Under the pieces are notes generated by a model, which worked only from the letters and a program-made list of their open reading frames with translations, did not search any database and was not told the DNA's origin. From an uncultured Acidobacteriaceae bacterium (lineage in GTDB: Bacteria > Acidobacteriota > Terriglobia > Terriglobales > Acidobacteriaceae): a stretch of DNA of 64,000 bases. Made by a program: the position numbers and the translations under genes. Below are positions 1,880 through 48,706 of the stretch, piece after piece; the first letter of the stretch is position 1; each line of letters opens with the position of its first letter. The DNA lies in contig CAVUYH010000012.1 in the NCBI GenBank assembly GCA_963745685.1, positions 82,808-146,807 on the forward strand, given 5' to 3'.

Positions 1880-1887
1880 AGCAGCGG

Positions 1888-1931
1888 GTTAGCCGCGCTG
1901 GGCGCACGTCAGCGAGTTAGCAAGTTAGCGA
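1888..1931 (+). repeat. Octamer array (GTTAGCRA type)
   Basis: GTTAGCCGCGCT, then GTCAGCGA GTTAGCAA GTTAGCGA. Confidence 0.7.
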
Positions 1932-1965
1932 CACTACGCGTCAGGCTGCCTGACTTGCTTCATCG

Positions 1966-2880
1966 CTAGTGCACGATCCCATGAAGCGGCGGTACTGGCG
2001 GGGGTGGTCGCATTGTGGCCAGGACGAGGATGGCGAAGACTGCGGCGGCGGCTGTCGAAAGGAAATTGACGGCGTCGTTGTTGAGCCAGCTAATTTTCTC
2101 AAGCGTGGCTCCCAGCAGGCTGTCGAAGAACAGGCCGAAGACGCCGCCGGCACAACTCAATATAAGCATTGTGCGGTCGCCGCTGAGCGCCCAGGTTCCG
2201 GCAGCGGCTACCAGTGCTGCGGCGATGATACCGGCCAGCGTGCCGGCGAGAGTGACGGCGCCGTCTGTGCCGGGATCGACTTTGCGCAGCGTTGTGATCA
2301 TGCGCGGGCTGCCTCCGAAGACCTGACCAATCTCGGATGAAGCTGTGTCCGCGGCTGCCTCAGCCAATGCGGCCAGGGCAATTGTAAAGAGCGGCGCGGG
2401 TATGAGCGTGGTGTTTGCAAAGCCGTGCGAATCGATGAGCCAGGACTGGAAGAACTCGCTCGACGCAATGGCGGCTACCCCGAGATTGGCAGCTACCTGC
2501 GAGGGGGATCGGCCGCGCTTGCTTTCAGCCCTGCCGAGGCGCTCCTTCTTGTGGCGGCCGAGCTTGGTTGTGACAAAAGTGATGGCAACTACCGCGAGCA
2601 CCGGAATAAAAGCAGTGTGCCAGGGCAGGTACGGAAAGTAGGTGCTGGAGAACATGAGGCTGGCGAGGATGGCCGCGCCGGTGAATGCAGCCCACGGTGT
2701 AGCCGCATGGAGTTTCCATGTGACGAGGCCAAAGAGCGCGGCGAGACCGAGCGTCCAGATGGCGACGGGAGCCGACTGCAGGCTCCACCAATGAGCTTCA
2801 AGCAAGACGTGCGCGCCTATTCCCGGCAGGACGGCGAGAAGAACCAACTTGGATTGCCAGCGCAGATCTGTTTGGGCCAC
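1966..2880 (-). CDS. DUF92 (TMEM19-like) membrane protein
   Basis: Multiple TM segments; RSPSQVAANLG, AEAAADTASSEIG, PGTDGAVT and DSLLGATLE motifs. Confidence 0.88.
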   Translation of the reverse strand: MAQTDLRWQSKLVLLAVLPGIGAHVLLEAHWWSLQSAPVAIWTLGLAALFGLVTWKLHAATPWAAFTGAAILASLMFSSTYFPYLPWHTAFIPVLAVVAITFVTTKLGRHKKERLGRAESKRGRSPSQVAANLGVAAIASSEFFQSWLIDSHGFANTTLIPAPLFTIALAALAEAAADTASSEIGQVFGGSPRMITTLRKVDPGTDGAVTLAGTLAGIIAAALVAAAGTWALSGDRTMLILSCAGGVFGLFFDSLLGATLEKISWLNNDAVNFLSTAAAAVFAILVLATMRPPPPVPPLHGIVH

Positions 2881-2960
2881 GATTCATCGTAACCTGACCG
2901 GAATCGCCCGCAACGGGATCGCCGCGAGAGGTAGAGGTAGCGATGCCGGCTGGGTTTAAC

Positions 2961-2975
2961 AATCACGTTGTGATT
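2961..2975. promoter_or_regulatory. Inverted repeat AATCAC-GTT-GTGATT, putative operator between divergent DUF92 and GH genes
   Basis: Perfect 6-3-6 palindrome overlapping a possible -35 (TTGTGA 2968-2973) with TAGTAT at 2990-2995. Confidence 0.35.
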
Positions 2976-3111
2976 ATTGACGCCTGGGATAGTATTGTTG
3001 GTGCTCTTCGCTCAGGTTCTCTCTTGAACTGTGCGTTGGGCTGTCTTCGCTGAAGAACTTGTACTGGAACGTCAGCATTAAACGCTGGGTCGAATCGATC
3101 CTGAGGACGCC

Positions 3112-4371
3112 ATGAAAACGAAACATTTTGCTATCGCGCTTCTTGTTGCTTCAATTGCGTTGCCAGTGGCAGCGCAACGCCGCGTGCCGAAGGACCTGAG
3201 CGGCGTGCGGGGATTCAATTATCAGAGTGCCGAAACCACGGGACACGCTGAGATGTGGGCGCAGTACAATCCGGCGGTCACGGAGCGCGACCTGGATTAT
3301 GCCAAGCGGCTTAACCTGAATCAGATTCGCGTGTTTGTGCCATATGCGGCGTGGGAGCACGACAAGGAAGGACTGAGACGCGATTTGCAGCACTTTGTGC
3401 GCGCCGCGCACGCGCGCGGCATGGGCGTGATGCCGACGATGATGTATCGGTTCGGCGAGTTTCGAGACAAATCAAAGTGGGAGAATGCGCGCCCGTTCGT
3501 TACCGATCTGGTGGCCGACATCGGAAAGGAGCCGGGGCTGGAGATATGGGACGTGGAGAACGAGCCCGAGTGCTGCAAGCTGCCGCCCACTCCGGATAAT
3601 CGTCTACGGATGGAACACGCCATGTATATGGCCAAAATGTTTCATGAGATCGACCCGGTAACGCCGGTGACAATTGGTGCGACGTTCGCAGAAAACATGA
3701 TCGAGATGGGCGATGCGGTGGATGTGTTGTCGTTCCACGATTACCTGACGACGCGAGCCGCCATTCGCGCCGACATTGCCAAGGCGAAAGCGTACGCGGC
3801 CAAGGTTGGAAAGCCGCTGATCAACACTGAGATTGCCTGCATTGCCCGCGCAAATCCATATGACGTGGCCATCCAGGAGCACATGGACGCGCACGTCGGC
3901 TGGTACATCTGGGAGCTGATGATTACCGGACAATGGGGCACGGTGCACGGCGTGTTCTATCCGGACGGAACGGTGCGCGATCCTTCGATCGTTGCAGCGC
4001 TGATGGGGTTTTTCCGCAATCGCGGCGAAAAGATTGTTGAGGATGTTCCCGACCGCGAGAACCATCTGACTGAAGCCGTAACGAACAACAAGAAATGGCT
4101 TGCTGATCAGAATGCGGATTGGAATGCCGGTCTCGATCTTGCCGAAGTATCGGTGAACCTGCTGGAGGCCTCGCAACTGATCGCGATGCACGATCTGCCG
4201 TCGCGCAAGGTGATGTTGATGCGGAGCGGCGCGCCGGACTTGCCTGCATTGCGCGCGATGCTGGAAAAGTATACGGCGCTGCTGGAGCCGTACCAACTCG
4301 CTCCCGGTGATCCACGCCGCAGCAGGTCAGGACCGCCTCCGGGCGTGATCCCGGCTGCGCCGAAGAACTGA
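3112..4371 (+). CDS. Secreted clan GH-A glycoside hydrolase (GH5-like)
   Basis: Signal peptide; RGFNY, WDVENEP (acid/base Glu), SFHDY and INTE (nucleophile Glu) motifs. Confidence 0.8.
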   Translation: MKTKHFAIALLVASIALPVAAQRRVPKDLSGVRGFNYQSAETTGHAEMWAQYNPAVTERDLDYAKRLNLNQIRVFVPYAAWEHDKEGLRRDLQHFVRAAHARGMGVMPTMMYRFGEFRDKSKWENARPFVTDLVADIGKEPGLEIWDVENEPECCKLPPTPDNRLRMEHAMYMAKMFHEIDPVTPVTIGATFAENMIEMGDAVDVLSFHDYLTTRAAIRADIAKAKAYAAKVGKPLINTEIACIARANPYDVAIQEHMDAHVGWYIWELMITGQWGTVHGVFYPDGTVRDPSIVAALMGFFRNRGEKIVEDVPDRENHLTEAVTNNKKWLADQNADWNAGLDLAEVSVNLLEASQLIAMHDLPSRKVMLMRSGAPDLPALRAMLEKYTALLEPYQLAPGDPRRSRSGPPPGVIPAAPKN

Positions 4372-4387
4372 AGCCTTTCAAGCACAG

Positions 4388-4426
4388 AACCCCGCGGCCC
4401 GTGGTGGTTGCGGGGTTTTGCTTTTG
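4388..4426 (+). terminator. Rho-independent terminator
   Basis: AACCCCGCGGCC/GGTTGCGGGGTT stem followed by TTGCTTTTG, just after the GH stop. Confidence 0.7.
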
Positions 4427-4454
4427 TATAATCGCCGCAACCTGCTGAGGGAGA

Positions 4455-5111
4455 TTGCCTTTGAAGCCACGCGGAGCTGTGGGAACCGGAGTGCGGCGGC
4501 GCGGGCGCGAGAACTGGGGCCTTTCGCCTGCGGATATGCGCACATTGCGGTCGCTGAATACTCCGGCGCGCATCCAGAAGTTCGTTGATGCGTTGACTTA
4601 TCAGTACGCCGATACGGCGTGGTCTCCGCAGCGCGTATTGCGCGATCGCAAAGGGCATTGTCTTGAGGGCGCTCTGTTGGCTGCGGCGGCGCTGCGCGTC
4701 AATGGGTATCCGCCGCTGCTGATGGACCTGGAGGCGGTGCATGACGACGATCATGTGCTGGCCATTTATCGCGAGCGCGGGTTGTGGGGAAGCATCGCCA
4801 AGTCGAATTTCGCGGGTCTGCGGTTTCGCGCGCCAATCTATCGTACGTTGCGCGAACTGGCGCTGAGCTATTTTGAAAACTATTACAACCTGCGTGGCGA
4901 GCGCACGTTGCGCGCCTACTCCGTGCCGGTGAACCTGGCGCGGCTGGACGGCAAGCGTTGGATGACGTCGGAAGAGGATGTGTGGTGTGTTACCGATCTG
5001 CTTGTGGATGCAAGGCACTATGCGCTGATGCCCGACAAGGTGGCGCGTCAGCTTCCGCGCGTGGACCGGCGCAGCTTCGAGTCGGGAATGCATGGATGGG
5101 TGAAGCACTGA
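4455..5111 (+). CDS. Conserved hypothetical protein, transglutaminase-like Cys-His type
   Basis: GHCLEGALLAAAAL and DDDHVLAIY motifs (Cys and His candidates); start uncertain. Confidence 0.7.
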   Translation: MPLKPRGAVGTGVRRRGRENWGLSPADMRTLRSLNTPARIQKFVDALTYQYADTAWSPQRVLRDRKGHCLEGALLAAAALRVNGYPPLLMDLEAVHDDDHVLAIYRERGLWGSIAKSNFAGLRFRAPIYRTLRELALSYFENYYNLRGERTLRAYSVPVNLARLDGKRWMTSEEDVWCVTDLLVDARHYALMPDKVARQLPRVDRRSFESGMHGWVKH

Positions 5112-5163
5112 AGGCAGCGGGTTAGAGCGCTGCGCGCGAGTTAGCGAGTTAGCAAGTCAGCAG
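5112..5163 (+). repeat. Octamer array (GTTAGCRA type)
   Basis: AAGGCAGCGGGTTAG..., then GTTAGCGA GTTAGCAA GTCAGCAG. Confidence 0.7.
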
Positions 5164-5165
5164 CG

Positions 5166-6011
5166 CTATTGCGGCTGGCTTCCGTTGTCGAAGTGGATGG
5201 TGGATTCGCTGGCAAAGCGATGGTAGTTCTTGAAGTCGATTCGATTGTCGTACGAGTGCGTGCCGTCTTCCATGTGGACGAGAGAACGTGACGGCAGGGA
5301 GTAATTCTTGCCGGCAATCTGCTGCGGAGCGTATTCGACCTTGCGCTCGACGACATGGATTGGATAATTGAGTGGCATGTCGAATTTGGAGCTGATCTCA
5401 ACTACCTCCATGGACGCGGGATCGACGTAAATTTCACCGGAGTAGGAAACTTGAATCTCTTTGTCGCTGTCTCCGTAAACTATGCTGGTGCCGGCTTCCT
5501 TGGGGACATGAAAACCGAAAACGTCAACGGGGTGGCCGTGCAGTTTCTCTGCGTGTTCCCACGTAAAGGTGGTGTGCGACGCCGGATCGAAGACCTCGGA
5601 GAGAACGCTGCCGAACTCGCCCGCGCTGATGGCTCCGCCCAGACTCAGATGTTCTTTGCCAACCGCCTTTTTGCCGTTGAAGGTCAGGACGTCGTAGCTC
5701 TCCCTGCCACCGACGTAAGTGAGCTGCTCTTCGATGATGTCGCTTGAAAAGCCCATACTGTTTGCCATCGCGGCGATTGGACTCCGGCCTGAAACTCCGG
5801 CGCCAATGTTGCTATCCGGCGTTTTGGAGATGACGCGATGAGTGATCTGCGTACAGATAAAGTCGGGCAGTAGGCGGGTATACTGCAGCGCGGCAGTGCG
5901 CGCCGTCTCGATGACCTTGGACTGGTCAGGGGAGAGCTGCCCGGACTCGGCGGCAAAACTGCTGCGAGCCATGAGCACCAGAGCGACGGTGGCGAATTTA
6001 AGGCAGGTCAC
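5166..6011 (-). CDS. Exported hypothetical protein, paralog 1 of a tandem pair
   Basis: LPDFICTQ, EEQLTYVGG, GEFGS and FDPASHT shared with the adjacent paralog; GTG at 6011 preceded by GGAGG. Confidence 0.8.
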   Translation of the reverse strand: MTCLKFATVALVLMARSSFAAESGQLSPDQSKVIETARTAALQYTRLLPDFICTQITHRVISKTPDSNIGAGVSGRSPIAAMANSMGFSSDIIEEQLTYVGGRESYDVLTFNGKKAVGKEHLSLGGAISAGEFGSVLSEVFDPASHTTFTWEHAEKLHGHPVDVFGFHVPKEAGTSIVYGDSDKEIQVSYSGEIYVDPASMEVVEISSKFDMPLNYPIHVVERKVEYAPQQIAGKNYSLPSRSLVHMEDGTHSYDNRIDFKNYHRFASESTIHFDNGSQPQ

Positions 6012-6107
6012 AAATTCTGCCTCCGCACAACGCCGGAGAGTTGTGTCTGGGTAATAATAGCGCCTTTTGCAGTGAGGCGTGAAGGCGGCGGCCATCACTC
6101 TATGCGG

Positions 6108-6914
6108 TTATTGCGGGTTTTCATTGTCAAAGTGAATCGTGGACTCGGAAGAGAAGTGGTGATAGTTTTTGAAGTCGATCTGGTTGTCATAGACTCGCGT
6201 GCGCTCTTCCAGGTGCACCTCGGAGTGGGCAGGAAGGCAGTACTTCTTGCCGGCGATGTCCTGATCGGCGTATGTGATTTTGCGTGTGACATTCCGGATG
6301 GGGAAAGTGCCCGGCACATCGAGCGTGGAGGAGATTTCAAGAACGTCTTTCGTCTCAGGGTCGATGATTACTTTGCCGGAATAAGAGACGACGATGGCAG
6401 TGTTGGTCGGTTGGTCAATGACGGTGGTGCCGGACTCTTTCGGAACGCGATACTTGAAGGCCCATGCGCGCCGGCCATCTACACGCTCTTCACGGTCCCA
6501 GCTAAAGACGGTGTGTGATGCAGGATCGAAGACCTGCGATGAGAGAGAGCCAAACTCGCCCCAGGAAATGGCACCGGTAAGTTGCCCGTGAACGGCGCTG
6601 GGTGCCACTTTACCGTCCACGGTGAGAACGACGTATCTTTCTTTTCCGCCGACGTAGGTGAGCTGTTCCTCAATGACGTCGCTGGATTGCGGCTGTAAAC
6701 CGATCAAGGTACCGAAAGAAGTGCGAGCCGCAATATCGCGGCGGGTGACCTGCGTGCAAATGAAGTCGGGCAACTTATGCGCATATTGGAGCGCATAAGC
6801 GCGAGTGTCTTCAAGCACGCTCGTTTGGTCGGTGGAGAGTTTCGACGATCCCGCAATGACGGAGATGGGAGCAGCTAGCAAGAGAAGGATCGCGACAACC
6901 TTCAGGCACTTCAC
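6108..6914 (-). CDS. Exported hypothetical protein, paralog 2 of a tandem pair
   Basis: Same conserved blocks, ending FKNYHHFSSESTIHFD; GTG at 6914 preceded by GGAGG. Confidence 0.8.
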   Translation of the reverse strand: MKCLKVVAILLLLAAPISVIAGSSKLSTDQTSVLEDTRAYALQYAHKLPDFICTQVTRRDIAARTSFGTLIGLQPQSSDVIEEQLTYVGGKERYVVLTVDGKVAPSAVHGQLTGAISWGEFGSLSSQVFDPASHTVFSWDREERVDGRRAWAFKYRVPKESGTTVIDQPTNTAIVVSYSGKVIIDPETKDVLEISSTLDVPGTFPIRNVTRKITYADQDIAGKKYCLPAHSEVHLEERTRVYDNQIDFKNYHHFSSESTIHFDNENPQ

Positions 6915-7075
6915 GAATTCCGCCTCCCCAAACGTTGTGAAAATATCGTCCGCGCCATAATAGTCCATTTTGGTCAAAACGCATGGGGCGCCAATGCGGC
7001 GAGCAGGCCTTTTGTAGTAAAAGAGCTAACGTACGTGGCGTTTGTATTGAAGGTCGCCGCTAAGCGGGGTGAGAG

Positions 7076-9445
7076 ATGCATCGGAACCGAATTGCATTTG
7101 CCGTTTTTATTGCCATTATTTCTGTCGTTGTGTCAGTTCAGGGCCAAAGGTCTGTACAGCAGAAGGTGATCGAACGAAGGGGCCAGACGATTGTTCTTGA
7201 GCCGTACGCGCCGAACATCGTGCGTGTCACGCTCAGTCTGCAGCCGGAACCCGCGAAAGCAGCGCCGGGCTTTGGAATTGTTGCCAAGCCCGCGGATGCA
7301 GGATGGAAATCGAGCCAGACAGAAGAGGCAGATGTGTACTCAAGCGACCGCATGACGGTGACGGTGGACAGGCCGCGTCCCAGCGGCAGGCCGCGTGTGC
7401 AGACGCAGGTGGACATTAGCAAATACTTCAACGGGTCGACGCCCGGCGCGCACATCACGTTTACCACTCCGGACGGCGGGACGCTGCTGGAGATGAAGGG
7501 GTGGTCACAGGCCGTTCCGAACCATAAAGACGGTACGGCGCTCCTGGAGTACCAGCGGCGGCCGAGCGATCCGGCTTTTTATACGGTCGGCGCAACCTTT
7601 GCTTCGCCCGATGACGAGCACTATTACGGACTCGGCCAGAATCAAGAGGGCTTCCTCGATCATCGTGGACACGCGGTGCGGTGCTGGAACGACTACCTGG
7701 CAACGGCGGGGCCGAGCTATTGTATTCCATTCATGGTGACCAACAAAGGCTACGGGGTGCTGTGGGACAATCCGTCGCGCACCACGATCGAACCGGGATT
7801 CAACGAAGAGACGCGCTGGAAATCGGAAGTCGGCGAGCGCGTTTCGTTTTTCGTGATTGCCGGAAAGACGAGCGACGAAATCTTCGCCGGATATCGCTTG
7901 CTGACCGGGCCCGCTCCAATGCTGCCCAAAGCAGCGTATGGATACATCCAGTGCAAGCAGCGCTACGCGAGCCAGGACGAATTGCTTGCCGTAGCGAAGG
8001 GATATCGCGAGCGCCATTTGCCGGCGGACGTGCTGGTGGTGGACTGGTTCTATTACACCAAGATGGGGCAGATGGATCTGGACCCGAAGTTCTGGCCCGA
8101 TCCGAAAGGGATGAATAAGAAGCTGCACGAAATGGGATACGAAACCATGATCAGCGTGTGGCCGCGCTTTGTGCCTGAGTCTCGGTATTATGCGGAGCTA
8201 AAGGACAAGGGCTGGTTCATTCATCTGGCGGACGGTACGCCTATCAATGGGCTGCCGTACGACCGCGCGGGTTCGGACATCGATACCACAAACCCTGATG
8301 CGGCGAAGTGGTACTGGAATACGATCCGCGACAACATTTTGAGCCAGGGTTTCGACTCTCTGTGGGCGGACGAGACAGAGCCGGACCTGCCGCCGGATGG
8401 CGCCTATTTCCACGTTGGGCCGGGAACCCAGTTTTTCAATGTGTATCCGCTGTTTCACGTAGGGGCGCTCTACGACGGCTTCCGGCGTGACGAACCGGCA
8501 AAGCGGGCGCTGATTCTTTCGCGCGACGCTTACCTGGGAGTGCAAAGCAAGGGCGCCATCGTGTGGTCGTCGGATATCCATCCGACGTGGGACACATTGC
8601 GGCGGCAGATTGCCACCGGGCTGGACGTGACGGCATCGGGCATTCCGTACTGGTCAAACGACACCGGCGGATGGCAGTATCTACCGGCTGTGCACAAACC
8701 GGCGCGGAAGCCGCTGCTTGACCCGGAGGACGCGCGCGCTACTGTGGGCGGATACGACGATTATCCGGAGCTGTATACACGCTGGTTCCAGTACGCCACG
8801 TTTCTGCCGATTTTCCGGACGCACGGCAGTCGGCCCGCGAATGAGGTTTGGTCGTACGGAAAGCAGGCGGAGCCGATTCTGGAAAAGTACCTTCGCCTGC
8901 GTTATGAGCTGATGCCTTACATCTACTCGCTTGGTTACCGCACGTGGATGACGGGCGCGCCGATCATGCGTGCCTTGCCGCTGGATTTCGCGGGCGACGC
9001 CAAGGTTGCCGATATTCGAGATGAGTATATGTTGGGCCCGGCGTTCCTGGTGGCTCCGGTGACGGAGCAGGGTACGACGAGCAGAGATGTTTATCTGCCG
9101 GCGGGAACCGACTGGTACAACTGGTGGACCGGTGAGCGCGTAAAAGGCGGCCAAACGATTGCTGTGGCGGCGCCAATCGATACCATTCCGCTGTTTGTGC
9201 GGGCGGGGTCAATTGTGCCGCTGGGCAGCGCAGTTGAAAGCACGCACGAGAAGCAGACGATTGCGAAGCTGAGGGTGTTTCCGGGCGCGGATGCCGACTT
9301 TACCTTGTTTGACGACGATGGGAGCACCTACGCGTATGAAAATGGCGGTGGTACGGTAACCCGTCTGCACTGGGACGAGGCAGGACAACGGCTAACCAGT
9401 AACGGAGCGGCGGTGGAAGCTGGGCTCCTGGAGGTCGCGAAGTAG
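7076..9445 (+). CDS. Glycoside hydrolase family 31 (alpha-xylosidase/glucosidase-like), secreted
   Basis: Signal peptide; LVVDWFYY, LWADETEPD (nucleophile Asp), WSNDTGG, RWFQYATFLPIFRTHG and IPLFVRAGSI motifs. Confidence 0.92.
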   Translation: MHRNRIAFAVFIAIISVVVSVQGQRSVQQKVIERRGQTIVLEPYAPNIVRVTLSLQPEPAKAAPGFGIVAKPADAGWKSSQTEEADVYSSDRMTVTVDRPRPSGRPRVQTQVDISKYFNGSTPGAHITFTTPDGGTLLEMKGWSQAVPNHKDGTALLEYQRRPSDPAFYTVGATFASPDDEHYYGLGQNQEGFLDHRGHAVRCWNDYLATAGPSYCIPFMVTNKGYGVLWDNPSRTTIEPGFNEETRWKSEVGERVSFFVIAGKTSDEIFAGYRLLTGPAPMLPKAAYGYIQCKQRYASQDELLAVAKGYRERHLPADVLVVDWFYYTKMGQMDLDPKFWPDPKGMNKKLHEMGYETMISVWPRFVPESRYYAELKDKGWFIHLADGTPINGLPYDRAGSDIDTTNPDAAKWYWNTIRDNILSQGFDSLWADETEPDLPPDGAYFHVGPGTQFFNVYPLFHVGALYDGFRRDEPAKRALILSRDAYLGVQSKGAIVWSSDIHPTWDTLRRQIATGLDVTASGIPYWSNDTGGWQYLPAVHKPARKPLLDPEDARATVGGYDDYPELYTRWFQYATFLPIFRTHGSRPANEVWSYGKQAEPILEKYLRLRYELMPYIYSLGYRTWMTGAPIMRALPLDFAGDAKVADIRDEYMLGPAFLVAPVTEQGTTSRDVYLPAGTDWYNWWTGERVKGGQTIAVAAPIDTIPLFVRAGSIVPLGSAVESTHEKQTIAKLRVFPGADADFTLFDDDGSTYAYENGGGTVTRLHWDEAGQRLTSNGAAVEAGLLEVAK

Positions 9446-9640
9446 CGAGTCGGCAGGCCAGCAAATCAGCCAAGCCAGTGGGTCAGCGGGCCAGCGCTCG
9501 GGGGTGATACCGGAGTACCTCCGCGCCGCGTCTAAAGGACATACGCGCATGGAGTTGCTGACTGAGCGCTGACGGGACCGATGCGTGCTTTTGCCCGGTC
9601 CGGCTGATTTACAATCTGAAAGTAAGCAGGAAAGATCTGA

Positions 9641-11167
9641 ATGAGTCTTTTTCCCATGAGTTCAGGCAGGGCGCGTGTGCGTCTGTTTCAGGCGGGTGCG
9701 GCATTGGTGGCGGCAGCTTTAGTGGCCGGATGCGGCAACAACTACCGTCCGGTGGTGACGCCGATTAATCCGAGCGGCCCGTCGGCGCAGCCTATTTCCT
9801 ATGCGGTGGTGATTTCTTCGCCTTCGCCCACCACATCGGGCATCGTAACGATTCTGGACTACTCCGGCGACACGGTGATGGCGATTGCGCCCATTGGGCC
9901 GGGCCCCAGGACGTTTGTGCTGGATCAGCTCGGCGCCACAGGATACACAGTCAACAGCGACGGAACGCTGGCCAATTTTCCCATTACGACGTCGCTGCAG
10001 GCGAAGATGGTGACCTACTCCACGCTGGCCTCGAACGCGCAGCCGTTGAATTTTCTGGCGCCGTCTGCCGGGCTTTGGGCCACAGACCTGACCGGCAACA
10101 TGGTCGATATCTTTCAGTTAAGTCCCGCCTCTTTCAAGCTGGCGATTCCGGTTCCGCCAACGCCGGTCGCAATCGTCGGCAGCCCAACGCTGTCGGGCCA
10201 GCGCGAGTACGTTGTGAGCCAGAACTTTGCTGATCCGACGGGCCTGGCTTGTAACACTTCGCCTGCTACGCAGCCCACGGGTGTGATTACGCCGATCGAG
10301 ATCCAGTCCTATACGACAGATCCGCCGATTCCGGTGGGCCAGTGCCCGGTTTATGCATTGCCTAGCCCTGACACGAAGCGCATCTTCGTATTGAACCGTG
10401 GAAGCGACACGGTTTCGGTCATCAACGGGCAGACCAACGCATTGAACCAGTGCACACCGTTTATCGACGGCCAGACGGGACGCACGGTGACCTGCCATCC
10501 TACGCTGCCGCTTTCAACTGCGTCCCTTACGCCCTTGAATAAGCCGGTCAACTGCGATATCACCGCGACTCCAACCTGCGGATTTCCCGCGACCGCAGAG
10601 CCCGTTTACGCTGAGTACAACGCGGCCACGAGCCAGCTTGTGGTGGCCAACTACGCGGGCGGGACCATCAGTGTGATTGATGTGAGCCTGGATCAGTTTG
10701 GGAACGACAGCCCGACTTTCGGCACCACATATACGATTCCGGTGGGCAAGAATCCCGCCAGCGTGACCGTTCTATACGACGGCAGCCGCGCTTATACGGC
10801 CAACCAGACGGACGGCACAGTAACGATTGCCAACCTGACGAGCCATACGGTTGAGAAGACTATGACCGTGGTGGGGCATCCGCGCACGATTGTCTCCACG
10901 CAGAACTCACTGTACGGCAAGGTGTATGTCGCTTCGCCAGACTCGCCCTATGTGACCATCCTGTCGGTTGCGACTGATCTGGTGGATACCACGGTTCTGG
11001 TCCAGGGCAATGTGTTGGACATTCGCACGACAACGCAGAACGGTATCAGTGGTAATGCGAACGTTACAAGCCGAACGCCGGGATACGGCCAGCCATGCAA
11101 TATGCCGGGACTTCCGACGCCCACAGGCACCCAGACACCACTGCAGGCCTGCCAGGCGATTCCGTAA
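9641..11167 (+). CDS. YncE-like beta-propeller lipoprotein
   Basis: Lipobox LVAGC; repeated YVAN/YTAN...GTISVID and TIPVGKNP blades. Confidence 0.75.
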   Translation: MSLFPMSSGRARVRLFQAGAALVAAALVAGCGNNYRPVVTPINPSGPSAQPISYAVVISSPSPTTSGIVTILDYSGDTVMAIAPIGPGPRTFVLDQLGATGYTVNSDGTLANFPITTSLQAKMVTYSTLASNAQPLNFLAPSAGLWATDLTGNMVDIFQLSPASFKLAIPVPPTPVAIVGSPTLSGQREYVVSQNFADPTGLACNTSPATQPTGVITPIEIQSYTTDPPIPVGQCPVYALPSPDTKRIFVLNRGSDTVSVINGQTNALNQCTPFIDGQTGRTVTCHPTLPLSTASLTPLNKPVNCDITATPTCGFPATAEPVYAEYNAATSQLVVANYAGGTISVIDVSLDQFGNDSPTFGTTYTIPVGKNPASVTVLYDGSRAYTANQTDGTVTIANLTSHTVEKTMTVVGHPRTIVSTQNSLYGKVYVASPDSPYVTILSVATDLVDTTVLVQGNVLDIRTTTQNGISGNANVTSRTPGYGQPCNMPGLPTPTGTQTPLQACQAIP

Positions 11168-11172
11168 AAGCA

Positions 11173-11268
11173 GTTGACAAGTTTACGAGTTGACCAGTTT
11201 CCGGGTTCCAGGTCTTTCGTGGTGGGACACATCAACTTGTAAACTCGTCAACTAGTCAACTTGTAGAC
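11173..11268. repeat. Two facing octamer arrays (GTTKACRA type)
   Basis: GTTGACAA GTTTACGA GTTGACCA, and the reverse array TTGTAAAC TCGTCAAC TAGTCAAC TTGTAGAC. Confidence 0.85.
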
Positions 11269-12039
11269 TTGGAAACCGTCTCCAAAACGCGTGTAGATTT
11301 GCTGCTGGTTGAGCGGGGGCTCGTTCCCAGCCGCGAACGGGCGCGCGCGTACATTCTGGCGGGCCGCGTTCTCATTAACGAACAGAAAATAGACAAGCCG
11401 GGGACCGCGGTTGCCGGTGATGCAGCGGTGCGGCTGTTGGGCGACGATATGCCCTATGTGAGCCGAGGCGGGCTCAAGTTGGCGGGGGCTCTGGAGCACT
11501 GGCACATTACCGTGGAGGACAGAGCCTGCATCGATGTCGGCGCTTCGACAGGCGGATTTACCGATTGCCTGCTGCAGCATGGCGCGGCGCAGGTAACCGC
11601 AGTGGACACCGGCTTTGGGCAAATTGCGATGAAGCTTCGCAACGATCCGCGTGTCCGGCTGATGGAGCGCACGAATGCACGGCTTCTCGACGCGGGTGCG
11701 CTTGCCGCAAAGGAAGGCGAGCCTGATTTGACGCTGCTGGTGATGGACGTTTCCTTCATTTCCGCAACGCTGCTGCTGGAGCGGGTGCTGGCTGCGGCGC
11801 CGGCGCTGACGGAAGCAGTTGTGCTGGTGAAGCCGCAGTTTGAGGCGGGGCGGGAACACGTGGGCAAGGGCGGCATTGTGCGCGATCCTGAAGCGCACGA
11901 ACTGGCGATAGCCAAAGTGGCCGATTGCGTGCGCGGATTGGGATGGAATGTGGTCGAGACGATTCCGTCGCCAATTACCGGGGCAGAAGGCAACAGGGAG
12001 TTTCTGCTTTACGCCAAGCGGAGCAAGACAGCAAGTTAG
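11269..12039 (+). CDS. tlyA: TlyA family rRNA methyltransferase
   Basis: S4-like N-terminus (RVDLLLVERGL), YVSRGGLKL, DVGASTGGFTDCLLQ, MDVSFIS, VKPQFEAG and GNREFL motifs. Confidence 0.95.
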   Translation: METVSKTRVDLLLVERGLVPSRERARAYILAGRVLINEQKIDKPGTAVAGDAAVRLLGDDMPYVSRGGLKLAGALEHWHITVEDRACIDVGASTGGFTDCLLQHGAAQVTAVDTGFGQIAMKLRNDPRVRLMERTNARLLDAGALAAKEGEPDLTLLVMDVSFISATLLLERVLAAAPALTEAVVLVKPQFEAGREHVGKGGIVRDPEAHELAIAKVADCVRGLGWNVVETIPSPITGAEGNREFLLYAKRSKTAS

Positions 12040-12086
12040 CCGCGCTCCGCGCGTGTTTGCGAGTTAGCAGGTTAGCCAGTTGGCGA
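12035..12086 (+). repeat. Octamer array (GTTAGCRA type)
   Basis: GTTAGCCGCGCT (identical to 1888-1899), then GTTTGCGA GTTAGCAG GTTAGCCA GTTGGCGA. Confidence 0.75.
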
Positions 12087-12164
12087 AGCGGGCTGGAGCG
12101 CGGAGCCAATTGCAAGACCGTATATTCAACGTTTGCGCCACGCTGATCCATTACACTTGATCGC

Positions 12165-13022
12165 ATGGCTCGGGTCGCAATTGTTTCAAAACCGCACAAG
12201 GAAGAGCTGAGCCGGATTCTGCCGGAACTGGTGGAATGGCTGCGCGGGCACGGCATGGAGCCGCTGCTGGATCGCGAGGGTGCGCTGCATACGGATGCGG
12301 CTCCGGCTGCAGACCGCATCGAAATGGTGGCGTGGAATCCTGACCTTGTAATTGTGTTGGGCGGAGACGGAACGCTGCTGGCCGCAGCGCGCGTCTTTGC
12401 AGCTTCGGGCACGCCGATTCTGAGTGTGAACCTGGGCTACCTGGGCTTTCTTACAGAGATCAAGCTGGGGGACCTGTACCCTACGCTCGAAAGCTGGTGT
12501 GCGGGTTGCCACGAATTGGACGAGCGGACGATGCTTCACGCTGCGCTGTGGCGCGATGGTAAGCAGCACTCCTGCTATGAAGCGCTCAATGAAGTGGTGG
12601 TATCGAAAGGCGATATTGCCCGCATGGGCGAGTTCGCAGTAGAGCTCGATGGCAAAAGCGTGGCGCGGTTCCGGGCCGACGGTGTGATTGTGTCCACGCC
12701 TACCGGATCCACGGCCTACACTCTGGCGGCAAACGGTCCAATCCTGACACCGGATGTGGATGCGCTGGTGGTGACGCCGATCTGCCCTCATCTGCTGACG
12801 CTGCGTCCAATCGTTGTGCGCGGCGACGCGAGTTTGAATGTGAAGGTAGTTGGAATTCCCAACCTGGCGCTGTTGACGGTGGACGGCCAACAGGCTGTGG
12901 AGTTGCGGCTCGAGGACGAACTCCGCTGCCGTCGTTCGCAGCATACGGTAAAGCTGGTGCGCATGAACGAAAGCGGCTTCTTTGAAGCGCTGCGAAGCAA
13001 GCTTAGCTGGGGAGAGCGGTAA
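12165..13022 (+). CDS. nadK: NAD(+) kinase
   Basis: LGGDGTLL, NLGYLGFL, ALNEVVV, ADGVIVSTPTGSTAY and PICPH motifs. Confidence 0.96.
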   Translation: MARVAIVSKPHKEELSRILPELVEWLRGHGMEPLLDREGALHTDAAPAADRIEMVAWNPDLVIVLGGDGTLLAAARVFAASGTPILSVNLGYLGFLTEIKLGDLYPTLESWCAGCHELDERTMLHAALWRDGKQHSCYEALNEVVVSKGDIARMGEFAVELDGKSVARFRADGVIVSTPTGSTAYTLAANGPILTPDVDALVVTPICPHLLTLRPIVVRGDASLNVKVVGIPNLALLTVDGQQAVELRLEDELRCRRSQHTVKLVRMNESGFFEALRSKLSWGER

Positions 13023-13026
13023 GGCA

Positions 13027-13211
13027 GTTTACAAGTTTACGAGTTGACAAGTTTCCAGGTTTCTGACGCATCGGGAACGCTTTGCTGTCGATTTTTTGGA
13101 GATATATTTCGGCTGCAAAGCGTTCAATGGCATTAAGGGTGTCGAATTCTATGCCTTGTAAACTCGTAAACCCGTCGACTTATAAACTCGTAAACTTGTT
13201 AACTTGTCAAC
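13027..13211. repeat. Two facing octamer arrays (3 plus 7 units)
   Basis: GTTTACAA GTTTACGA GTTGACAA at 13027-13050; seven reverse units at 13156-13211. Confidence 0.9.
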
Positions 13212-13216
13212 GGCCT

Positions 13217-13762
13217 TTAATGCGTTAGCTCTTGCAGCAGCACTTTGGCTTTTGCGGCGAGGGTGCTTGCTCCGTCTACATCGCCGGATTTGAGGGCTTC
13301 GCGGGCCTGCTTTAGATATTCGCGGATGTGCGCGGCGGTGGTCTGTTCCTGGTCGCTCAGCTGGCGGGTGATGCCGTTAAGACCGCGTTCGATGTCGTTG
13401 AGAGCGGTCTCCGTCTGGTCGCGGGCGCCCGCAGGGTCGCCGGAAGAGAGCTGGCCGATCGCGCTTACGGCAGGCTCACCGGAAGACGCCTGTTGCGTTT
13501 CGGGCTGGGGCGGCGTAGCGGGCTGCTTCTTGTGCCTGGGCGGCTGCTTTGCCGAATGGTACGGCAATTTAGTTTCAGAGACCTGCGGCTTGTTGGGGAT
13601 GGTAACTTCGGGCGGCGGCAACTGGGTAGGCGGCGGCTCACTTGAACTCGTGTTAATTTTGGGCGCGATCTGAGGCGCAACGGGCTTTTGGTTCCGGTGG
13701 AACCAGCACCCGGTAAGAAACAAGGGGAGTACCCACGCGACGATCTTGGCAGGCATCTTCAT
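13217..13762 (-). CDS. Pro-rich lipoprotein with helical C-terminus, last gene of the two-component operon
   Basis: Lipobox LFLTGC; 4-nt overlap with the kinase stop. Confidence 0.75.
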   Translation of the reverse strand: MKMPAKIVAWVLPLFLTGCWFHRNQKPVAPQIAPKINTSSSEPPPTQLPPPEVTIPNKPQVSETKLPYHSAKQPPRHKKQPATPPQPETQQASSGEPAVSAIGQLSSGDPAGARDQTETALNDIERGLNGITRQLSDQEQTTAAHIREYLKQAREALKSGDVDGASTLAAKAKVLLQELTH

Positions 13763-15675: not shown

Positions 15676-15678
15676 GAC

Positions 15679-17088
15679 TCAGTCGGCGATATTTTCTTGG
15701 CGGCTGCGGCTGTATTCCTTGAGCTTGTTGTGCAGGGTCTTCAGGCTGACGCCAAGGATTTCGGCGGCGCGCGTCTTGTTTTGTCCTGTTGCTTCGAGAG
15801 TTCGCTGGATCAGCAGACGTTCGGCCTCGTCCACGGTGGTGCCAACATGCATCGGAATCATACTCTGATTGGAGCTTTGCGCGGCAGCCGGTTGCTGTTT
15901 GGCAAAGCCCGGCGCCAGGTGTCCCACGTCGAGCGGCGCGCCGTCTGGGCATAGGATCACGGCACGCTCAACGGTGTTGCGCAGTTCGCGCACATTGCCG
16001 GGCCAGCCGTAATTCATCATGCGGTCGATCATGGATTGCGCAACGCCGGAAACGCGACGATTATGCTTCTCATTCATCTGCGCCAGTATGGTTTCCGCCA
16101 TCAGTGGCAGATCTTCCATGTGCTCGCGCAACGGCGGCATGTGAATGTTGAAGACGTTTAAGCGGTAGAAAAGGTCGGCGCGCAGATGGCCTTCGGCAAC
16201 AGCAGTGTCCGGGTCGCGATTGGTGGCGGCCAGCACGCGAACATCGATCTCCTGCTCATTGCGCGCGCCAAGGCGCCGCAGCTTGCGCTCTTCAAGCACG
16301 CGGAGAAGCTTGGCCTGCGTTCCGTTGGGCATTTCGCCAACTTCGTCGAGCAGCAGGCTGCCACCTGCGGCAAGCTCGAAGCACCCGGAACGGCGTTCCA
16401 CGGCTCCGGTGAATGCGCCTTTTTCGTGGCCGAAGATTTCACTCTCGATGAGTGTTTCAGGAATGGCCGCGCAGTTAACGCCGACGAACGGCTTGGTCTT
16501 GCGCGGGCTAAGTTCGTGCAATGTGCGTGCGACCAGTTCCTTGCCGGTGCCGCTTTCGCCGGTGATGAGCACGTGGACGTTCGAGGGTGCGATCTGCTCG
16601 ATGAGGCCGAAGATTTCGCGCATGGCCTTGGAGTTGCCCACCAGGGAGCCGAGTACGCCGCTCTCACGCAGACGGCGACGCGCTACTTCAAGCTCGATCT
16701 CAGTTTGGCGCTGGCGCGTGGCGTTGCCTAGTATGGTGCGCAGGCGTGTGGCGTCCACCGGCTTCTGCAGGAAGTCGTATGCGCCCAGCTTCATGGCCTC
16801 GACGGCGAGTTGGATGGATCCCATTGCGGTAAGTACAACAACAGACAGATTCGAGTTCAGGCCGTTGCCCTGTTCGGCCAGCCGGGTCAGCAGGCCGATA
16901 CCATCCAGACGGGGCATCTTCAAATCGGTGACCACGATGGCCGGAGTCCAAGCCAGGATCTTATCCCAGGCTTCGATGCCATCCCGCGCAGTTTCAGTGC
17001 GGTAGCCCCAGCCGGAGATCAGTTCGGCCAGGCCCATGAGCGCGTTGGGCTCGTCTTCGGCAATGAGGACTTTTACGGCATTCTGCAT
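15679..17088 (-). CDS. Sigma54-dependent response regulator (NtrC family)
   Basis: REC domain (AEDE, DLKMP), GESGTGKE, ESEIFGHEKGAFTGA (GAFTGA), FYRLNV, WPGNVREL and a Fis-type HTH; ATG at 17088 preferred. Confidence 0.95.
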   Translation of the reverse strand: MQNAVKVLIAEDEPNALMGLAELISGWGYRTETARDGIEAWDKILAWTPAIVVTDLKMPRLDGIGLLTRLAEQGNGLNSNLSVVVLTAMGSIQLAVEAMKLGAYDFLQKPVDATRLRTILGNATRQRQTEIELEVARRRLRESGVLGSLVGNSKAMREIFGLIEQIAPSNVHVLITGESGTGKELVARTLHELSPRKTKPFVGVNCAAIPETLIESEIFGHEKGAFTGAVERRSGCFELAAGGSLLLDEVGEMPNGTQAKLLRVLEERKLRRLGARNEQEIDVRVLAATNRDPDTAVAEGHLRADLFYRLNVFNIHMPPLREHMEDLPLMAETILAQMNEKHNRRVSGVAQSMIDRMMNYGWPGNVRELRNTVERAVILCPDGAPLDVGHLAPGFAKQQPAAAQSSNQSMIPMHVGTTVDEAERLLIQRTLEATGQNKTRAAEILGVSLKTLHNKLKEYSRSRQENIAD

Positions 17089-17125
17089 ATGAGTTTTGCG
17101 GCCCGTGGAATCAACTGAGTCTATT

Positions 17126-19027
17126 CTATGCATCCGCGCCGGATTGTCCGGCTTTTTCGGTTAGTTCGGCCCAACGGGCATATAGGTCGTCATTCTCCAG
17201 TTGGGCAGCATCGAGCTCTGCCAAAGCCTGCTGGAGTGCGGCGGCATCGGTGGCGATTTCCGGGTCTTCAACACGGTCGCGGGCTGCTGCAAGCCGCTCG
17301 TCGGAAGTTTCGACGTGCTGCTCGATGGAGGCGTATTCGCGCACTTCAAGATAAGAGAGCTTTCTTTTGGCAGGGTTGGCGGTCTTGGAATTCGACACGG
17401 ACGCAGGCAGGGCGCCCTCGTCGCCTTGTAACCTTGTAACCTTGTAACCTGCTTTTGGCGTCTGTGCTGACTGCTCCTGCTCGGCGATCCAGTCTTCCCA
17501 TTGCGCGTAGTCGGCAAAGCGGCCGATGTGGCCGCGGCCATCGAGACCGAGAACGATGGTTGAGACGCGGTTGAGCATGTAGCGGTCGTGAGTGACGAGC
17601 ACGAGCGCGCCGGGAAATTCGAGCAGATTGTCTTCGAGAATTTCGAGCGTGGCCAGGTCGAGATCGTTTGTTGGCTCGTCGAGGAGGAGAACGTCGGCGG
17701 GCTCAAGCATCAGCTTGGCAATGAGCACGCGGGCGCGCTCGCCTCCTGAGAGGTTGCGGACCGGTTGGTTGAGCTGTTCGCCGGTAAAGAGGAAACGCGA
17801 CGCCCAACTGGCGACGTGAATGGTGCGGCCCTGATAGTTGACGCCATCGCCCTCAGGCGCGAGAGCGCGCCGGAGCGTGAGGCTCTCGTCAAGATCGCGC
17901 ATCTGGCTCAGGTAGACAAGACGCAGTGCGTCGGCGCGGCGAATGGCGCCTTGCGCGGGCTGAATCTCACCGCGCAGCAAGCGCAGCAGCGTGGTTTTGC
18001 CGCTGCCGTTGGGGCCAACGAGACCCACCTTCATGCCGGCCGTGAGAATGAAATCGAAGCCGTCAAATAAGAGCCGCGGTTGTAAAAGCCCGGGTTGATC
18101 GGCTGCGTATTCGCCGGCGGGCACCGCGCAGGCAACGCCTTCGAACTCAACCAGCCGCTTGGTTTTGCGCTCGGAGGCTTCAAAATCAATGCCGGCGAAA
18201 TTGACGTTGGTGCGCGAGTCCATGGCCGCCAACTTGCCGATCATCGCGTTGGCTGTGTCGATGCGCGCTTTGGATTTTGTGGTGCGGGCCTTGGGGCCGC
18301 GGCGAAGCCATTCAATTTCAGTGCGGACGCGGTTGCGCAGGCTCTCCTGCTGGCGGGCTTGCGATTCGAGATACGCCTGTTTTTCTTCGAGAAATCGGCT
18401 GAAGGTCCCTTTCACGCGCAGCAGGCCCTCAGCGAATACGCGATTCAGCTCGATGATTTGCGTCGAGGTGCTTTCGAGGAAGTAGCGATCGTGACTTACC
18501 GTGACGACGGCGAATGAGGCGTTTGCGAGCAGTTCCTCCAGCCATTCAATGCCGGCAAGATCAAGGTGGTTCGTGGGCTCATCGAGCAGCAACACGTCCG
18601 GCGCGCCGATCAGGGCTTCCATGATGGCGAGCCGCTTGCGCCAGCCGCCGGAGAGCGATGCAGCCTCCGCGGTGAGGTCGTCAAAGCCGGTGCGGCCGGC
18701 CAGCTCGCGCAGACGGCCTTCACGCTCGGTTTCGTTCACGTTTGCGGCGGTTAGCGCATTCTCAAGCACTTGGCGGACCGTCAGGCCGGCAGCGAAGCGG
18801 GAGTCCTGCGGCACGTAGGCGGCGCGGGCGCGTTTGCGCACGGCGAGCTCGCCGGAATCGGGCTCCACCTGGCCGGCAAGCAGGGCCAGCAGCGTGGATT
18901 TGCCCGCGCCGTTTGGGCCGATGAGGCCGATTCGGTCGCCATCCTCAACCGTGAGCGAGATGTTTTGAAACAAGGGAGTTGCGCCGAATTGTTTAGTGAC
19001 GGATTGGATGTTGAGGATCGGGGGCAT
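17126..19027 (-). CDS. uup: ABC-F family ATPase (Uup-like)
   Basis: Two ABC cassettes (GPNGAGKST, LSGGW, DEPTNHLD; GPNGSGKTT, LSGGE, DEPTNDLD), no TM segments, C-terminal KRKLSY coiled coil; ATG at 19027. Confidence 0.85.
   Translation of the reverse strand: MPPILNIQSVTKQFGATPLFQNISLTVEDGDRIGLIGPNGAGKSTLLALLAGQVEPDSGELAVRKRARAAYVPQDSRFAAGLTVRQVLENALTAANVNETEREGRLRELAGRTGFDDLTAEAASLSGGWRKRLAIMEALIGAPDVLLLDEPTNHLDLAGIEWLEELLANASFAVVTVSHDRYFLESTSTQIIELNRVFAEGLLRVKGTFSRFLEEKQAYLESQARQQESLRNRVRTEIEWLRRGPKARTTKSKARIDTANAMIGKLAAMDSRTNVNFAGIDFEASERKTKRLVEFEGVACAVPAGEYAADQPGLLQPRLLFDGFDFILTAGMKVGLVGPNGSGKTTLLRLLRGEIQPAQGAIRRADALRLVYLSQMRDLDESLTLRRALAPEGDGVNYQGRTIHVASWASRFLFTGEQLNQPVRNLSGGERARVLIAKLMLEPADVLLLDEPTNDLDLATLEILEDNLLEFPGALVLVTHDRYMLNRVSTIVLGLDGRGHIGRFADYAQWEDWIAEQEQSAQTPKAGYKVTRLQGDEGALPASVSNSKTANPAKRKLSYLEVREYASIEQHVETSDERLAAARDRVEDPEIATDAAALQQALAELDAAQLENDDLYARWAELTEKAGQSGADA
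17424..17450 (-). repeat. GGTTACAA x3 inside the ABC-F coding sequence
   Basis: CCTTGTAA repeated three times on the + strand (24 nt, frame-preserving). Confidence 0.85.
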
Positions 19028-48670: not shown

Positions 48671-48671
48671 G

Positions 48672-48706
48672 AACAGGGAACAGACAGCAGGGAACAGGGA
48701 TCAGGA
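48672..48706 (+). repeat. Heptamer tandem array (AACAGGG-like x5)
   Basis: AACAGGG AACAGAC AGCAGGG AACAGGG ATCAGGA, right after the stop. Confidence 0.7.

Follow-up and report, generated by a model that had tools for sequence, protein, structure and literature searches.

What are the tandem octamer arrays that open directly behind stop codons, again and again, in a stretch of soil bacterial DNA? The window considered here, i.e., the whole stretch of 64,000 nt that was analyzed (C12:82808-146807), belongs to the 4.87-Mb assembly (G000) of a soil acidobacterium of the genus Terracidiphilus. A preliminary description of this stretch had listed several arrays with an 8-nt period and proposed a non-autonomous repeat family or iterated binding sites. 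We find that the arrays are the arms of hairpin cassettes, which are genus-wide, fast-changing, stop-anchored and mostly gene-less. On balance, we favor the reading that these intergenic cassettes are of the type represented by intervening sequences (IVS), short tandemly repeated repetitive (STRR) sequences and long simple sequence repeats (LSSR), and that they would be co-transcribed with their neighbors and cut by RNase III. The octamer arrays of the window are as follows.

1877..1965, plus strand: GTTAGC8 (S-type) element filling the convergent gap between a DUF218 gene (stop 1877-1879) and a DUF92 gene (stop 1966-1968).
5109..5165, plus strand: GTTAGC8 (S-type) element after a transglutaminase-like gene (stop 5109-5111), abutting the convergent gene 5166-6098.
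9446..9498, plus strand: degenerate NNCAGCNR octamer array directly 3' of the stop of a GH31 gene (9443-9445).
11168..11210, plus strand: GTTKAC8 (K-type) 5' arm with its array at 11172-11210, 1 nt past the TAA of a lactonase-like gene.
11232..11280, minus strand: GTTKAC8 3' arm, an inverted array that pairs with 11168-11210.
12030..12092, plus strand: GTTAGC8 (S-type) array (12055-12086) with the GC mini-hairpin CGCGCTCCGCGCG.
13021..13066, plus strand: GTTKAC8 5' arm with its array at 13026-13066, after nadK (stop TAA, 13020-13022).
13155..13216, minus strand: GTTKAC8 arm with its array at 13155-13211, sense for the convergent gene 13217-13762 (stop TAA, lead AGGCCG).
17424..17457, minus strand: coding copy lying in frame within the linker region of an ABC-F gene, with a perfect 3.4-copy array at 17424-17450.

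Both sequence reading and Tandem Repeats Finder recovered every octamer array that had been reported, and by Pfam-supported gene models those on the plus strand begin 0-3 nt after stop codons. The lead AAG(G)CAG was likewise confirmed at 1878, 5111, 11168, 13021 and, on the minus strand, 17457. It is not a plain opening as had been supposed. Instead, it combines a truncated first unit with a purine-rich spacer, which forms the base of a stem and is complementary to a CTGC(T)TT tail at the far end. Nor does the solo array, which had been taken as the unit, describe these elements: the unit is an inverted pair that makes a hairpin of fixed polarity, and the arrays that read in reverse are second arms. 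The 5' arm at 11168-11210 (lead AAGCAG, then GTTGACAA GTTTACGA GTTGACCA GTTTCCGG) and that at 13021-13066 (lead AGGCAG, then GTTTACAA GTTTACGA GTTGACAA GTTTCCAG) each have an inverted GTTKAC8 partner, the second across a 90-nt loop that holds a small hairpin of its own. The tlyA gene has no ATG or GTG start; its sole candidate start is a TTG at 11269, inside the last unit of the 3' arm at 11232-11280.

The three GTTAGC8 loci share a fixed composite layout of lead, GTTAGC, CGCGC..GCGCG mini-hairpin and array. At 1877-1965, the lead AAGCAGCGG is followed by a GTTAGC unit, the mini-hairpin CGCGCTGGGCGCA, the array at 1908-1931, a second mini-hairpin (GTCAGG..CCTGAC) and a degenerate tail; at 5109-5165, the lead AAGGCAGCGG is followed by GTTAG, the GC mini-hairpin and the array at 5136-5163. 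At 12030-12092, the first GTTAGC unit supplies the stop codon of tlyA (TAG, 12037-12039). As a consequence of this stop inside the unit, TlyA of this genome has a short C-terminal extension relative to TlyA of the closest relative, G041. The degenerate array at 9446-9498 is made up of the units GTCGGCAG GCCAGCAA ATCAGCCA AGCCAGTG GGTCAGCG GGCCAGCG. The coding copy reads AAAAGCAG, three times GTTACAAG and then GCGACGAG, and encodes KAGYKVTRLQGDE. In the window, every copy is either intergenic or inside a protein-coding gene; none lies in 23S rRNA, a gene that is absent from the assembly. No match to any of 4227 Rfam covariance models reached the gathering score anywhere in the window, and no transposase is attached to the arrays, as the preliminary description had correctly stated.

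The arrays exceed chance expectation and belong to a larger set. Runs of at least two units of the pattern (GTTNNCNN) occur 267 times in the genome, as against 134-157 in order-3 Markov simulations, so the excess over a composition model that had been put up as a test is real; 56 runs have at least three units. A thresholded, sequence-blind period scan of the genome yielded 187 arrays of period 7 and 69 of period 8, compared to 4-5 for periods 5, 10 and 11; periods 6, 9 and 12 gave 38-44 arrays each, mostly coding. Of the arrays with period 7 or 8, ~93% fall in intergenic DNA, which makes up only 17% of the genome. The unit families are CAGCTNT (AGCT7, ~135 arrays), CAGKGNN (CAGKG7, ~40), GTTKACRA (~32), GGGAACRA (~17) and GTTAGCRR (~13). 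Every family reads NAG plus 4-5 nt and has a common purine-rich lead ending in GCAG; the octamers GTTKACRA, GTTAGCRR and GGGAACRA fall into one superfamily with the heptamers CAGCTNT and CAGKGNN. Judging by the 187 arrays of period 7 against 69 of period 8, the octamers are the minority partner of a larger heptamer set, heptamer arrays of octamer-like architecture being about three times commoner in this genome. The family is therefore not restricted to octamers, as had been implied, and octamer and 9-mer kin occur in other Terracidiphilus genomes. Two heptamer arrays lie in the window:

48671..48705, plus strand: five copies of GAACAGG, of the CAGKG7 type and thus of the same superfamily as the octamers, found by Tandem Repeats Finder.
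49791..49815, plus strand: 3.6 copies of CAGCTAT, of the AGCT7 family.

One family has a further peculiarity. Among AGCT7 units, 93% read AGC-T(GA/AA/AG)-N and so place a stop trinucleotide every 7 nt, with TGG depleted (19 observed, 64 expected). On the strand that leaves the loop, these trinucleotides shut every reading frame, and 57 of 58 3' arms shut all three on the mRNA strand. A three-frame stop array was considered as a general explanation and was dropped; it holds for AGCT7 and fails for the octamer families. Palindromes of the repetitive extragenic palindromic (REP) type (CCCAC...ATGGGGCAC) often stand directly 3' of AGCT7 5' arms (e.g., C5:221133, C9:28729 and C15:40233), as nested palindromic elements within the array-hairpin loops. 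An 81-bp tandem repeat built around a REP hairpin is also present in the window (53384-53760; 4.7 copies, 98% identical).

Placement and polarity follow one rule across the genome. Gene positions outside the window come from a crude open reading frame and codon-score caller whose starts tend to lie too far upstream, which makes distances to downstream starts unreliable. Among the arrays within 12 nt of a stop, 99 are sense and 3 antisense, which substantiates a strand bias relative to stops; orientation is set by the upstream gene. The median gap between stop and array is 2-3 nt, and TAA accounts for 50% of these upstream stops compared to 28.5% genome-wide. Arrays occupy 122 of 1497 co-directional gaps (8%) and 41 of 455 convergent gaps (9%), as against 12 of 543 divergent gaps (2%). 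An inverted partner lies within 200 nt of ~55-65% of the AGCT7, GTTKAC8 and GGGAAC8 arrays, and the order sense then antisense prevails over the reverse order by 37:1, 38:1, 8:0 and 9:0. A cassette accordingly starts 0-9 nt past the upstream stop with a purine-rich lead ending in CAG; the 5' arm of 3-10 tandem 7- or 8-nt units in fixed sense form comes next, then a non-conserved loop, and finally a 3' arm of inverted units of the same family that ends in CTGC(T)TT, either ahead of the following gene or at a convergent stop. The loops of 42 pairs measure 17-166 nt (median ~50) and share no homology across loci beyond a short TTCGTGC-like motif in some of them. An ordinary terminator was found in the loop of none of 41 paired co-directional gaps, in contrast to 86 of 774 array-free gaps, suggesting that both arms should sit on one transcript, inside transcription units. 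The two paired loci of the window fold well: 11160-11295 reaches -47.2 kcal/mol (z -4.16; none of 200 shuffles as good), with the tlyA TTG inside the stem, and 13015-13225 reaches -74.8 kcal/mol (z -6.03).

A further observation concerns what some of these hairpins enclose. All three genes of the PF05635/TIGR02436 family in the genome are enclosed by inverted arrays, and the array family differs from gene to gene:

C13:206497-206814: A-type PF05635 gene between AGCT7 arms.
C9:151669-151980: K-type PF05635 gene between GTTKAC8 arms, with lead GAGCAG and tail CTGCTC.
C6:61123-61440: S-type PF05635 gene, between pheS and pheT, with GTTAGC8 arms that each carry a GC mini-hairpin.

The loops of the window copies are empty, yet the copies can be aligned to the gene-bearing arms, lead and GC mini-hairpin included; the element at 1877-1965, for instance, was aligned with the 5' arm of the gene-bearing S cassette. 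Because the same arms enclose PF05635 genes, we regard the arrays as mostly gene-less copies of IVS- and STRR-like cassettes. The proposal of a non-autonomous repeat family holds in this sense: most copies lack a gene, and three with the same arms enclose one. The encoded proteins match TIGR02436 ('four helix bundle protein') and the structure PDB 2GSC from Xanthomonas campestris, and one of them matches Avd at 27.8 bits, below the cut-off. Avd is a nucleic-acid- and reverse-transcriptase-binding partner in diversity-generating retroelements.

The same bracketing is seen across the genus, for which the genomes compared are mostly peat and soil metagenome bins. At 27 of 33 PF05635 loci, from ~27 genomes, the flanks form an inverted repeat scoring at least 16; with reversed sequence as the control, 0 of 33 did so. 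Two of these genomes (G021 and G044) have PF05635 matches with identical contig coordinates and scores and are thus evidently one genome, so that counts across genomes include a duplicate. The flanking arms have period 7 at 21 loci and period 8 at 3. AGCT7 arms flank every relative of the A-type protein that is at least 65% identical to it, and S-type relatives in G015 and G024 have arms of GYCAGCRA octamers, which the degenerate units at 9446-9498 resemble. The S-type cassette between pheS and pheT is also present in G041 (C5:361032-361349), an orthologous insertion in a conserved gene pair; this orthologue is the second PF05635 gene of G041.

The unit families are patchily distributed within the genus. 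Triplets of GTTKACRA number 25 in the source genome and 0 in 40 relatives. The unit recurs only in the closest relative, G041 (26 matches with at most 2 mismatches; NadK 90% identical), i.e., in 2 of ~46 genomes, with none in four genomes at ~81% NadK identity. Of 41 genomes, 8 contain GTTAGCRR triplets and 20 contain CAGCYNT triplets; the count of the latter ranges from 0 to 68 per genome. Orthologous intergenes, whose comparison had been recommended, were compared for G000 and G041: both keep GTTKAC arms in the same gaps and the same orientation, the arm at 13021-13066 having its counterpart there, although the coding flanks are only 75-82% identical and the loops cannot be aligned. Hairpin selection alone fails to explain one unit consensus at ~30 dispersed loci in these two genomes. 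The ABC-F coding copy is found in G041 at the same place, with the same length and AAAAGCAG lead and with diverged units (ATTACGAA GGGACAAG GTTACAAG GGGACAGA), and is missing from nine further Terracidiphilus genomes. In the gap at nadK, G005 has a CAGTGNN pair, G018 and L086 have CAGGGNN arrays, L092 has NRAGGGAC octamers, and the other genomes have plain hairpins or nothing. Further unit families appear at the nadK locus in bins L082, L090 and L092, namely a 9-nt GTTAGCGGA variant, TAGTCCCT octamers and the NRAGGGAC octamers.

In the ribosomal-protein cluster (C9:39-63 kb), AGCT7 hairpins stand in nearly every gap from S7 to L17, with fold z scores of -3 to -8. The L2-S19 gap has two states in the genus, one of 14-15 nt and one of 119-135 nt. 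G001, G006, G007, G011, G013, G014 and G023 have the short one, TAG aggagctgagggtat ATG; the long form is the hairpin, and its last AGGAGCT unit is the Shine-Dalgarno sequence of the short form. At filled sites, the loops are homologous across species and the arms differ, those of G016 being CAGTGNN. On the tree of the flanking genes, the two states require at least 5 changes. It follows that the L2-S19 element is old, has been lost repeatedly and had its arms rewritten lineage after lineage. In eight Terracidiphilus genomes (L039-L055, L23-L2 gaps), a conserved block stands upstream of rplB (ATATCGGARCC, loop, GGYTCCGGAGAAACGGGGAGAGCGG ... CTCCAGGACAAAGACGATG), which may be a ribosomal-protein leader structure; in the source genome, an array hairpin takes its place in the L23-L2 gap.

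From these observations, a route can be proposed for such cassettes. Both arms would be co-transcribed with the flanking genes and would pair into an imperfect duplex of 20-40 bp. By analogy with the IVS of 23S rRNA, RNase III would then cut the duplex and remove the loop, together with the small gene if there is one. After the cut, the upstream cistron would keep one half of the stem just past its stop codon, and the downstream cistron would receive a 5' end near its ribosome-binding site. Processing by RNase III is an analogy with the rRNA elements; an RNase III gene is present (C12:25589-26044). Evolution of the arms would proceed by slippage of whole units, each lineage keeping or rebuilding arms of a single unit family, which points to either a sequence-specific partner or conversion between copies.

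Several results weigh against this reading. The three GTTAGC8 loci of the window fold no better than shuffles (z -0.86 for 1877-1965, +1.0 for 5109-5165 and -1.0 for 12030-12092). On the transcribed strand, arm mismatches are G:U in 131 cases and A:C in 143, so that fine-scale selection for RNA pairing is not visible, and complementarity of arms from the same locus is only slightly above that of arms from different loci (19.8 vs 17.7). For about 40% of arrays no partner was detected, and some of these solo arrays stand ahead of an ordinary terminator; some gaps mix arms of different families that pair at CAG/CTG only. The L2-S19 copy is dispensable: at least 4-5 losses occurred within the genus. 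In the source genome, no CAGKG7 or GGGAAC8 copy bears a gene, and the search for a K-type PF05635 gene in G041, a metagenome bin whose completeness is not stated, found none despite the GTTKAC8 arrays there. Finally, the window copies lie outside 23S rRNA, the site that defines classical IVS.

In a different account, the arrays are functionless by-products of DNA copying: units of 7-8 nt slip readily, arrays expand where non-coding DNA can accommodate them, template switching produces the inverted copies, selection removes only what damages the neighboring genes, and a stop codon is merely the edge of constrained sequence. The patchiness of the families in the genus (CAGCYNT 0-68 per genome, GTTAGCRR in 8 of 41 and GTTKACRA in 2 of ~46), the repeated loss of the L2-S19 element, the missing G:U bias with weak own-locus complementarity, and the differences between G000 and G041 in copy number and unit order all agree with it. 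Slippage has also been proposed for the excess of heptamers, as far as the accounts of Mrazek 2007 in PMC4679880 and PMC4692102 go. But slippage is strand-blind, and here 99 of 102 stop-adjacent arrays are sense and the partner order is invariant. Neither does it account for ~30 dispersed loci at which two species with unalignable loops retain one unit consensus, for the tie to one gene family at 27 of 33 loci, or for the depletion of arrays in divergent gaps. We consider the by-product account unlikely.

The preliminary description had also raised iterated binding sites. In its present form, this account holds that the units are DNA or RNA sites for the four-helix-bundle proteins, each paralogue recognizing a 7- or 8-nt unit of its own and preserving or spreading the copies that lack a gene, in a system of autonomous and non-autonomous copies to which the hairpin is secondary. 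The match of three PF05635 genes to three arm families in G000, the tracking of arm family by protein subfamily across genomes, the unit consensus kept across loci and between two species, and the weak, below-cut-off similarity to Avd (27.8 bits) would all fit. Yet the correlation of protein and arm is trivial if gene and arms are inherited as one cassette. Moreover, CAGKG7 (~40 arrays) and GGGAAC8 do without a gene-bearing copy in G000, GTTKAC8 arrays occur in G041, where no K-type gene was found, and G010, G011 and G018 have no PF05635 gene while arrays persist in G011 and G018. Binding sites as the primary explanation thus seem distinctly unlikely to us.

It is very unlikely that the hairpins are primarily translational-coupling devices, or inserts tolerated in operons because they are looped out, whose fold joins stop and start and whose stem base is opened by the terminating ribosome. 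At L2-S19, the AGGAGCT unit at the end of the 3' arm, which is the Shine-Dalgarno sequence in empty sites, is base-paired within the stem; the tlyA TTG also lies in a stem, and nearly every gap of the ribosomal-protein cluster holds a hairpin. The distances from stop to stem and from stem to start sum to ~13-25 nt, like empty gaps, subject to the unreliable start positions mentioned above. However, the Shine-Dalgarno sequence is outside the stem in most ribosomal-protein gaps, octamer units do not resemble it, and coupling is meaningless for the many copies between convergent genes, including four window loci. Sequestration of the Shine-Dalgarno sequence was accordingly rejected as a general mechanism, since it fits L2-S19 and tlyA only.

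Bidirectional intrinsic terminators with an A-rich lead and a U-rich tail are hardly credible: the arrays do lie downstream of genes and are rare in divergent gaps, their ends read AAAGCAG ... CTGCTTT, and several copies have T runs past the 3' arm, yet a T-rich tail occurs in only 2 of 41 paired co-directional copies, loops of 17-166 nt (median ~50) are not terminator-like, hairpins fill nearly every gap inside ribosomal-protein operons, and separate, ordinary terminators follow solo arrays. These four accounts (slippage, binding sites, coupling and terminators) are not mutually exclusive, with terminators and general Shine-Dalgarno masking the least supported.

Other candidates were set aside. 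The copies are not miniature inverted-repeat transposable elements, as their loops are not homologous and no duplication is visible when empty and filled L2-S19 sites are compared. Integron attC sites (RYYYAAC ... GTTRRRY) were rejected on arm order, which is the opposite here, GTT... coming first and ...AAC last in the arrays; the flanking genes are housekeeping genes, and no search aimed at an integrase was made. From the unit sequences, three further readings were weighed, namely Rho-binding sites, boxA-like sites and tandem -35 (TTGACA) promoter boxes, and all were dropped, the unit families being mutually unrelated.

The preferred reading, that of hairpin cassettes, joins STRR and LSSR, rRNA IVS and the PF05635 family, with the arrays as the arms of hairpins that enclose the IVS four-helix-bundle gene. 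Intergenic tandem heptamers have been noted since 1990 (STRR) and are the commonest long simple repeats in many genomes; their function and origin are not established. The present genome shows that a period of 8 is possible besides 7, and that unrelated unit families obey one stop-anchored rule of placement and polarity. For annotation, this means that hundreds of intergenic regions of soil Acidobacteria, including almost all gaps of ribosomal-protein operons, hold elements that are currently unannotated.

The known systems share different parts of this picture. Like the REP sequences and bacterial interspersed mosaic elements of enterobacteria, the cassettes are palindromic, numerous and intergenic; they occur inside operons as well as between convergent genes, often near stops. 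REP stem-loops protect upstream mRNA, and those within 15 nt of a stop were reportedly seen to stall ribosomes by Liang, Rudd and Deutscher in 2015. Unlike the arms described here, a REP is a fixed ~35-nt palindrome tied to RAYT transposases and not a tandem-repeat arm; a separate REP family exists in the source genome, often within array loops. The STRR heptamers of heterocystous cyanobacteria, said to have been described by Mazel et al. in 1990, reportedly comprise several tandem families that are intergenic in operons, capable of forming stem-loops and variable between relatives. The earlier analogy with them proved apt, since the genome contains 187 heptamer arrays that share the lead and obey the same rule of placement; two STRR units can be rotated to CAGTCCC and CAGTCAA, near the CAGTGNN units. 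They belong to another phylum, octamers are present here, and no unit is identical; stop-codon placement and an enclosed gene are not defined for STRR.

Comparable in placement are the G-rich heptamers of Xanthomonas (GGGAATC) and Nostoc (GGGGAYT). These are found at the stop codon when on the coding strand and ahead of the following gene when on the non-coding strand; they seldom occur between divergent genes, include inverted copies and have no known function (Rehm et al. 2015, PMC4692102). Like these and the LSSR of Mrazek et al. 2007, our arrays are tandem units of more than 6 nt dispersed in non-coding DNA. They lie on the coding strand within 50 nt of a stop or overlapping it and on the non-coding strand just 5' of the next gene, are under-represented between divergent genes, form inverted pairs without a transposase, and vary in number and sequence among close relatives at the same gene pairs. 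In contrast to the Xanthomonas and Nostoc heptamers, three families have period 8 and several unrelated unit families share a lead; a PF05635 link and a strict arm order, as seen in our arrays, were not reported for those heptamers. A quadruplex explanation is inapplicable to GTTKACRA and GTTAGCRR because they have no G tracts. The TAACTGA repeats of marine Beggiatoaceae, Cyanobacteria and Bacteroidetes lie just 5' of start codons, including those in ribosomal-protein operons (MacGregor 2015, PMC4679880). They are similarly patchy in their phylogenetic spread, and TAACTGA is the antisense of CAGTTAT, i.e., the 3'-arm orientation of our arrays; they are described as solo direct repeats upstream of genes, without a partner arm, stop anchoring or an enclosed gene. 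The tandem units found here exceed chance, are mainly non-coding and follow the published placement rule, as in the LSSR/STRR class. The octamers GTTKACRA, GTTAGCRR and GGGAACRA match none of the described families CCCCAGT, TTGGTCA, CAACAGT, GGGAATC, GGGGAYT and TAACTGA. The earlier impression of an uncatalogued octamer family thus stands for the unit sequences and partly falls for the class, which is catalogued in general terms (LSSR, STRR and Coxiella IVS heptamers).

As to the enclosed gene, the counterpart is the 23S rRNA IVS. An IVS of Leptospira 23S rRNA with an S23p (PF05635) gene was reportedly described by Ralph and McClelland in 1993. The cassettes share with such IVS the terminal inverted repeats, a stem of at least 20 bp and a loop that may hold a PF05635 gene, both kinds of element being regarded as selfish or of unknown function; in the window, a stable stem of at least about 20 bp is predicted at 11160-11295 and 13015-13225 and, by fold score, not at the three GTTAGC8 loci. 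Classical IVS sit in helix 25 or 45 of 23S rRNA and their cutting by RNase III is demonstrated, whereas the present cassettes, for which such cutting is a prediction, lie between protein-coding genes, are mostly gene-less and have arms wholly of tandem units. The IVS of Coxiella burnetii 23S rRNA has a 28-bp terminal stem that is cut mid-stem by RNase III, encloses a PF05635-family gene, and contains a strain-dependent number of tandem heptamers, GACAGAT (= CAGATGA) (Warrier et al. 2016, PMC4990558). The tandem CAG-containing heptamers, variable in number and located in the 5' stem region of the Coxiella element, are a feature in common with the arms seen here, and apart from them the link between arrays and PF05635 genes was not found in the literature searched. 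It is conceivable, though doubtful, that PF05635/TIGR02436 proteins and tandem-repeat arms make up one widespread, unrecognized element class, in which each paralogue would recognize the 7- or 8-nt unit of its own arms and gene-bearing copies would maintain, convert or spread the gene-less ones, with 23S IVS, STRR and Xanthomonas heptamers as its manifestations. The arrays of the window are an acidobacterial variant, built on octamers, of a repeat class that is known yet unexplained, with added evidence for a link to IVS-type cassettes.

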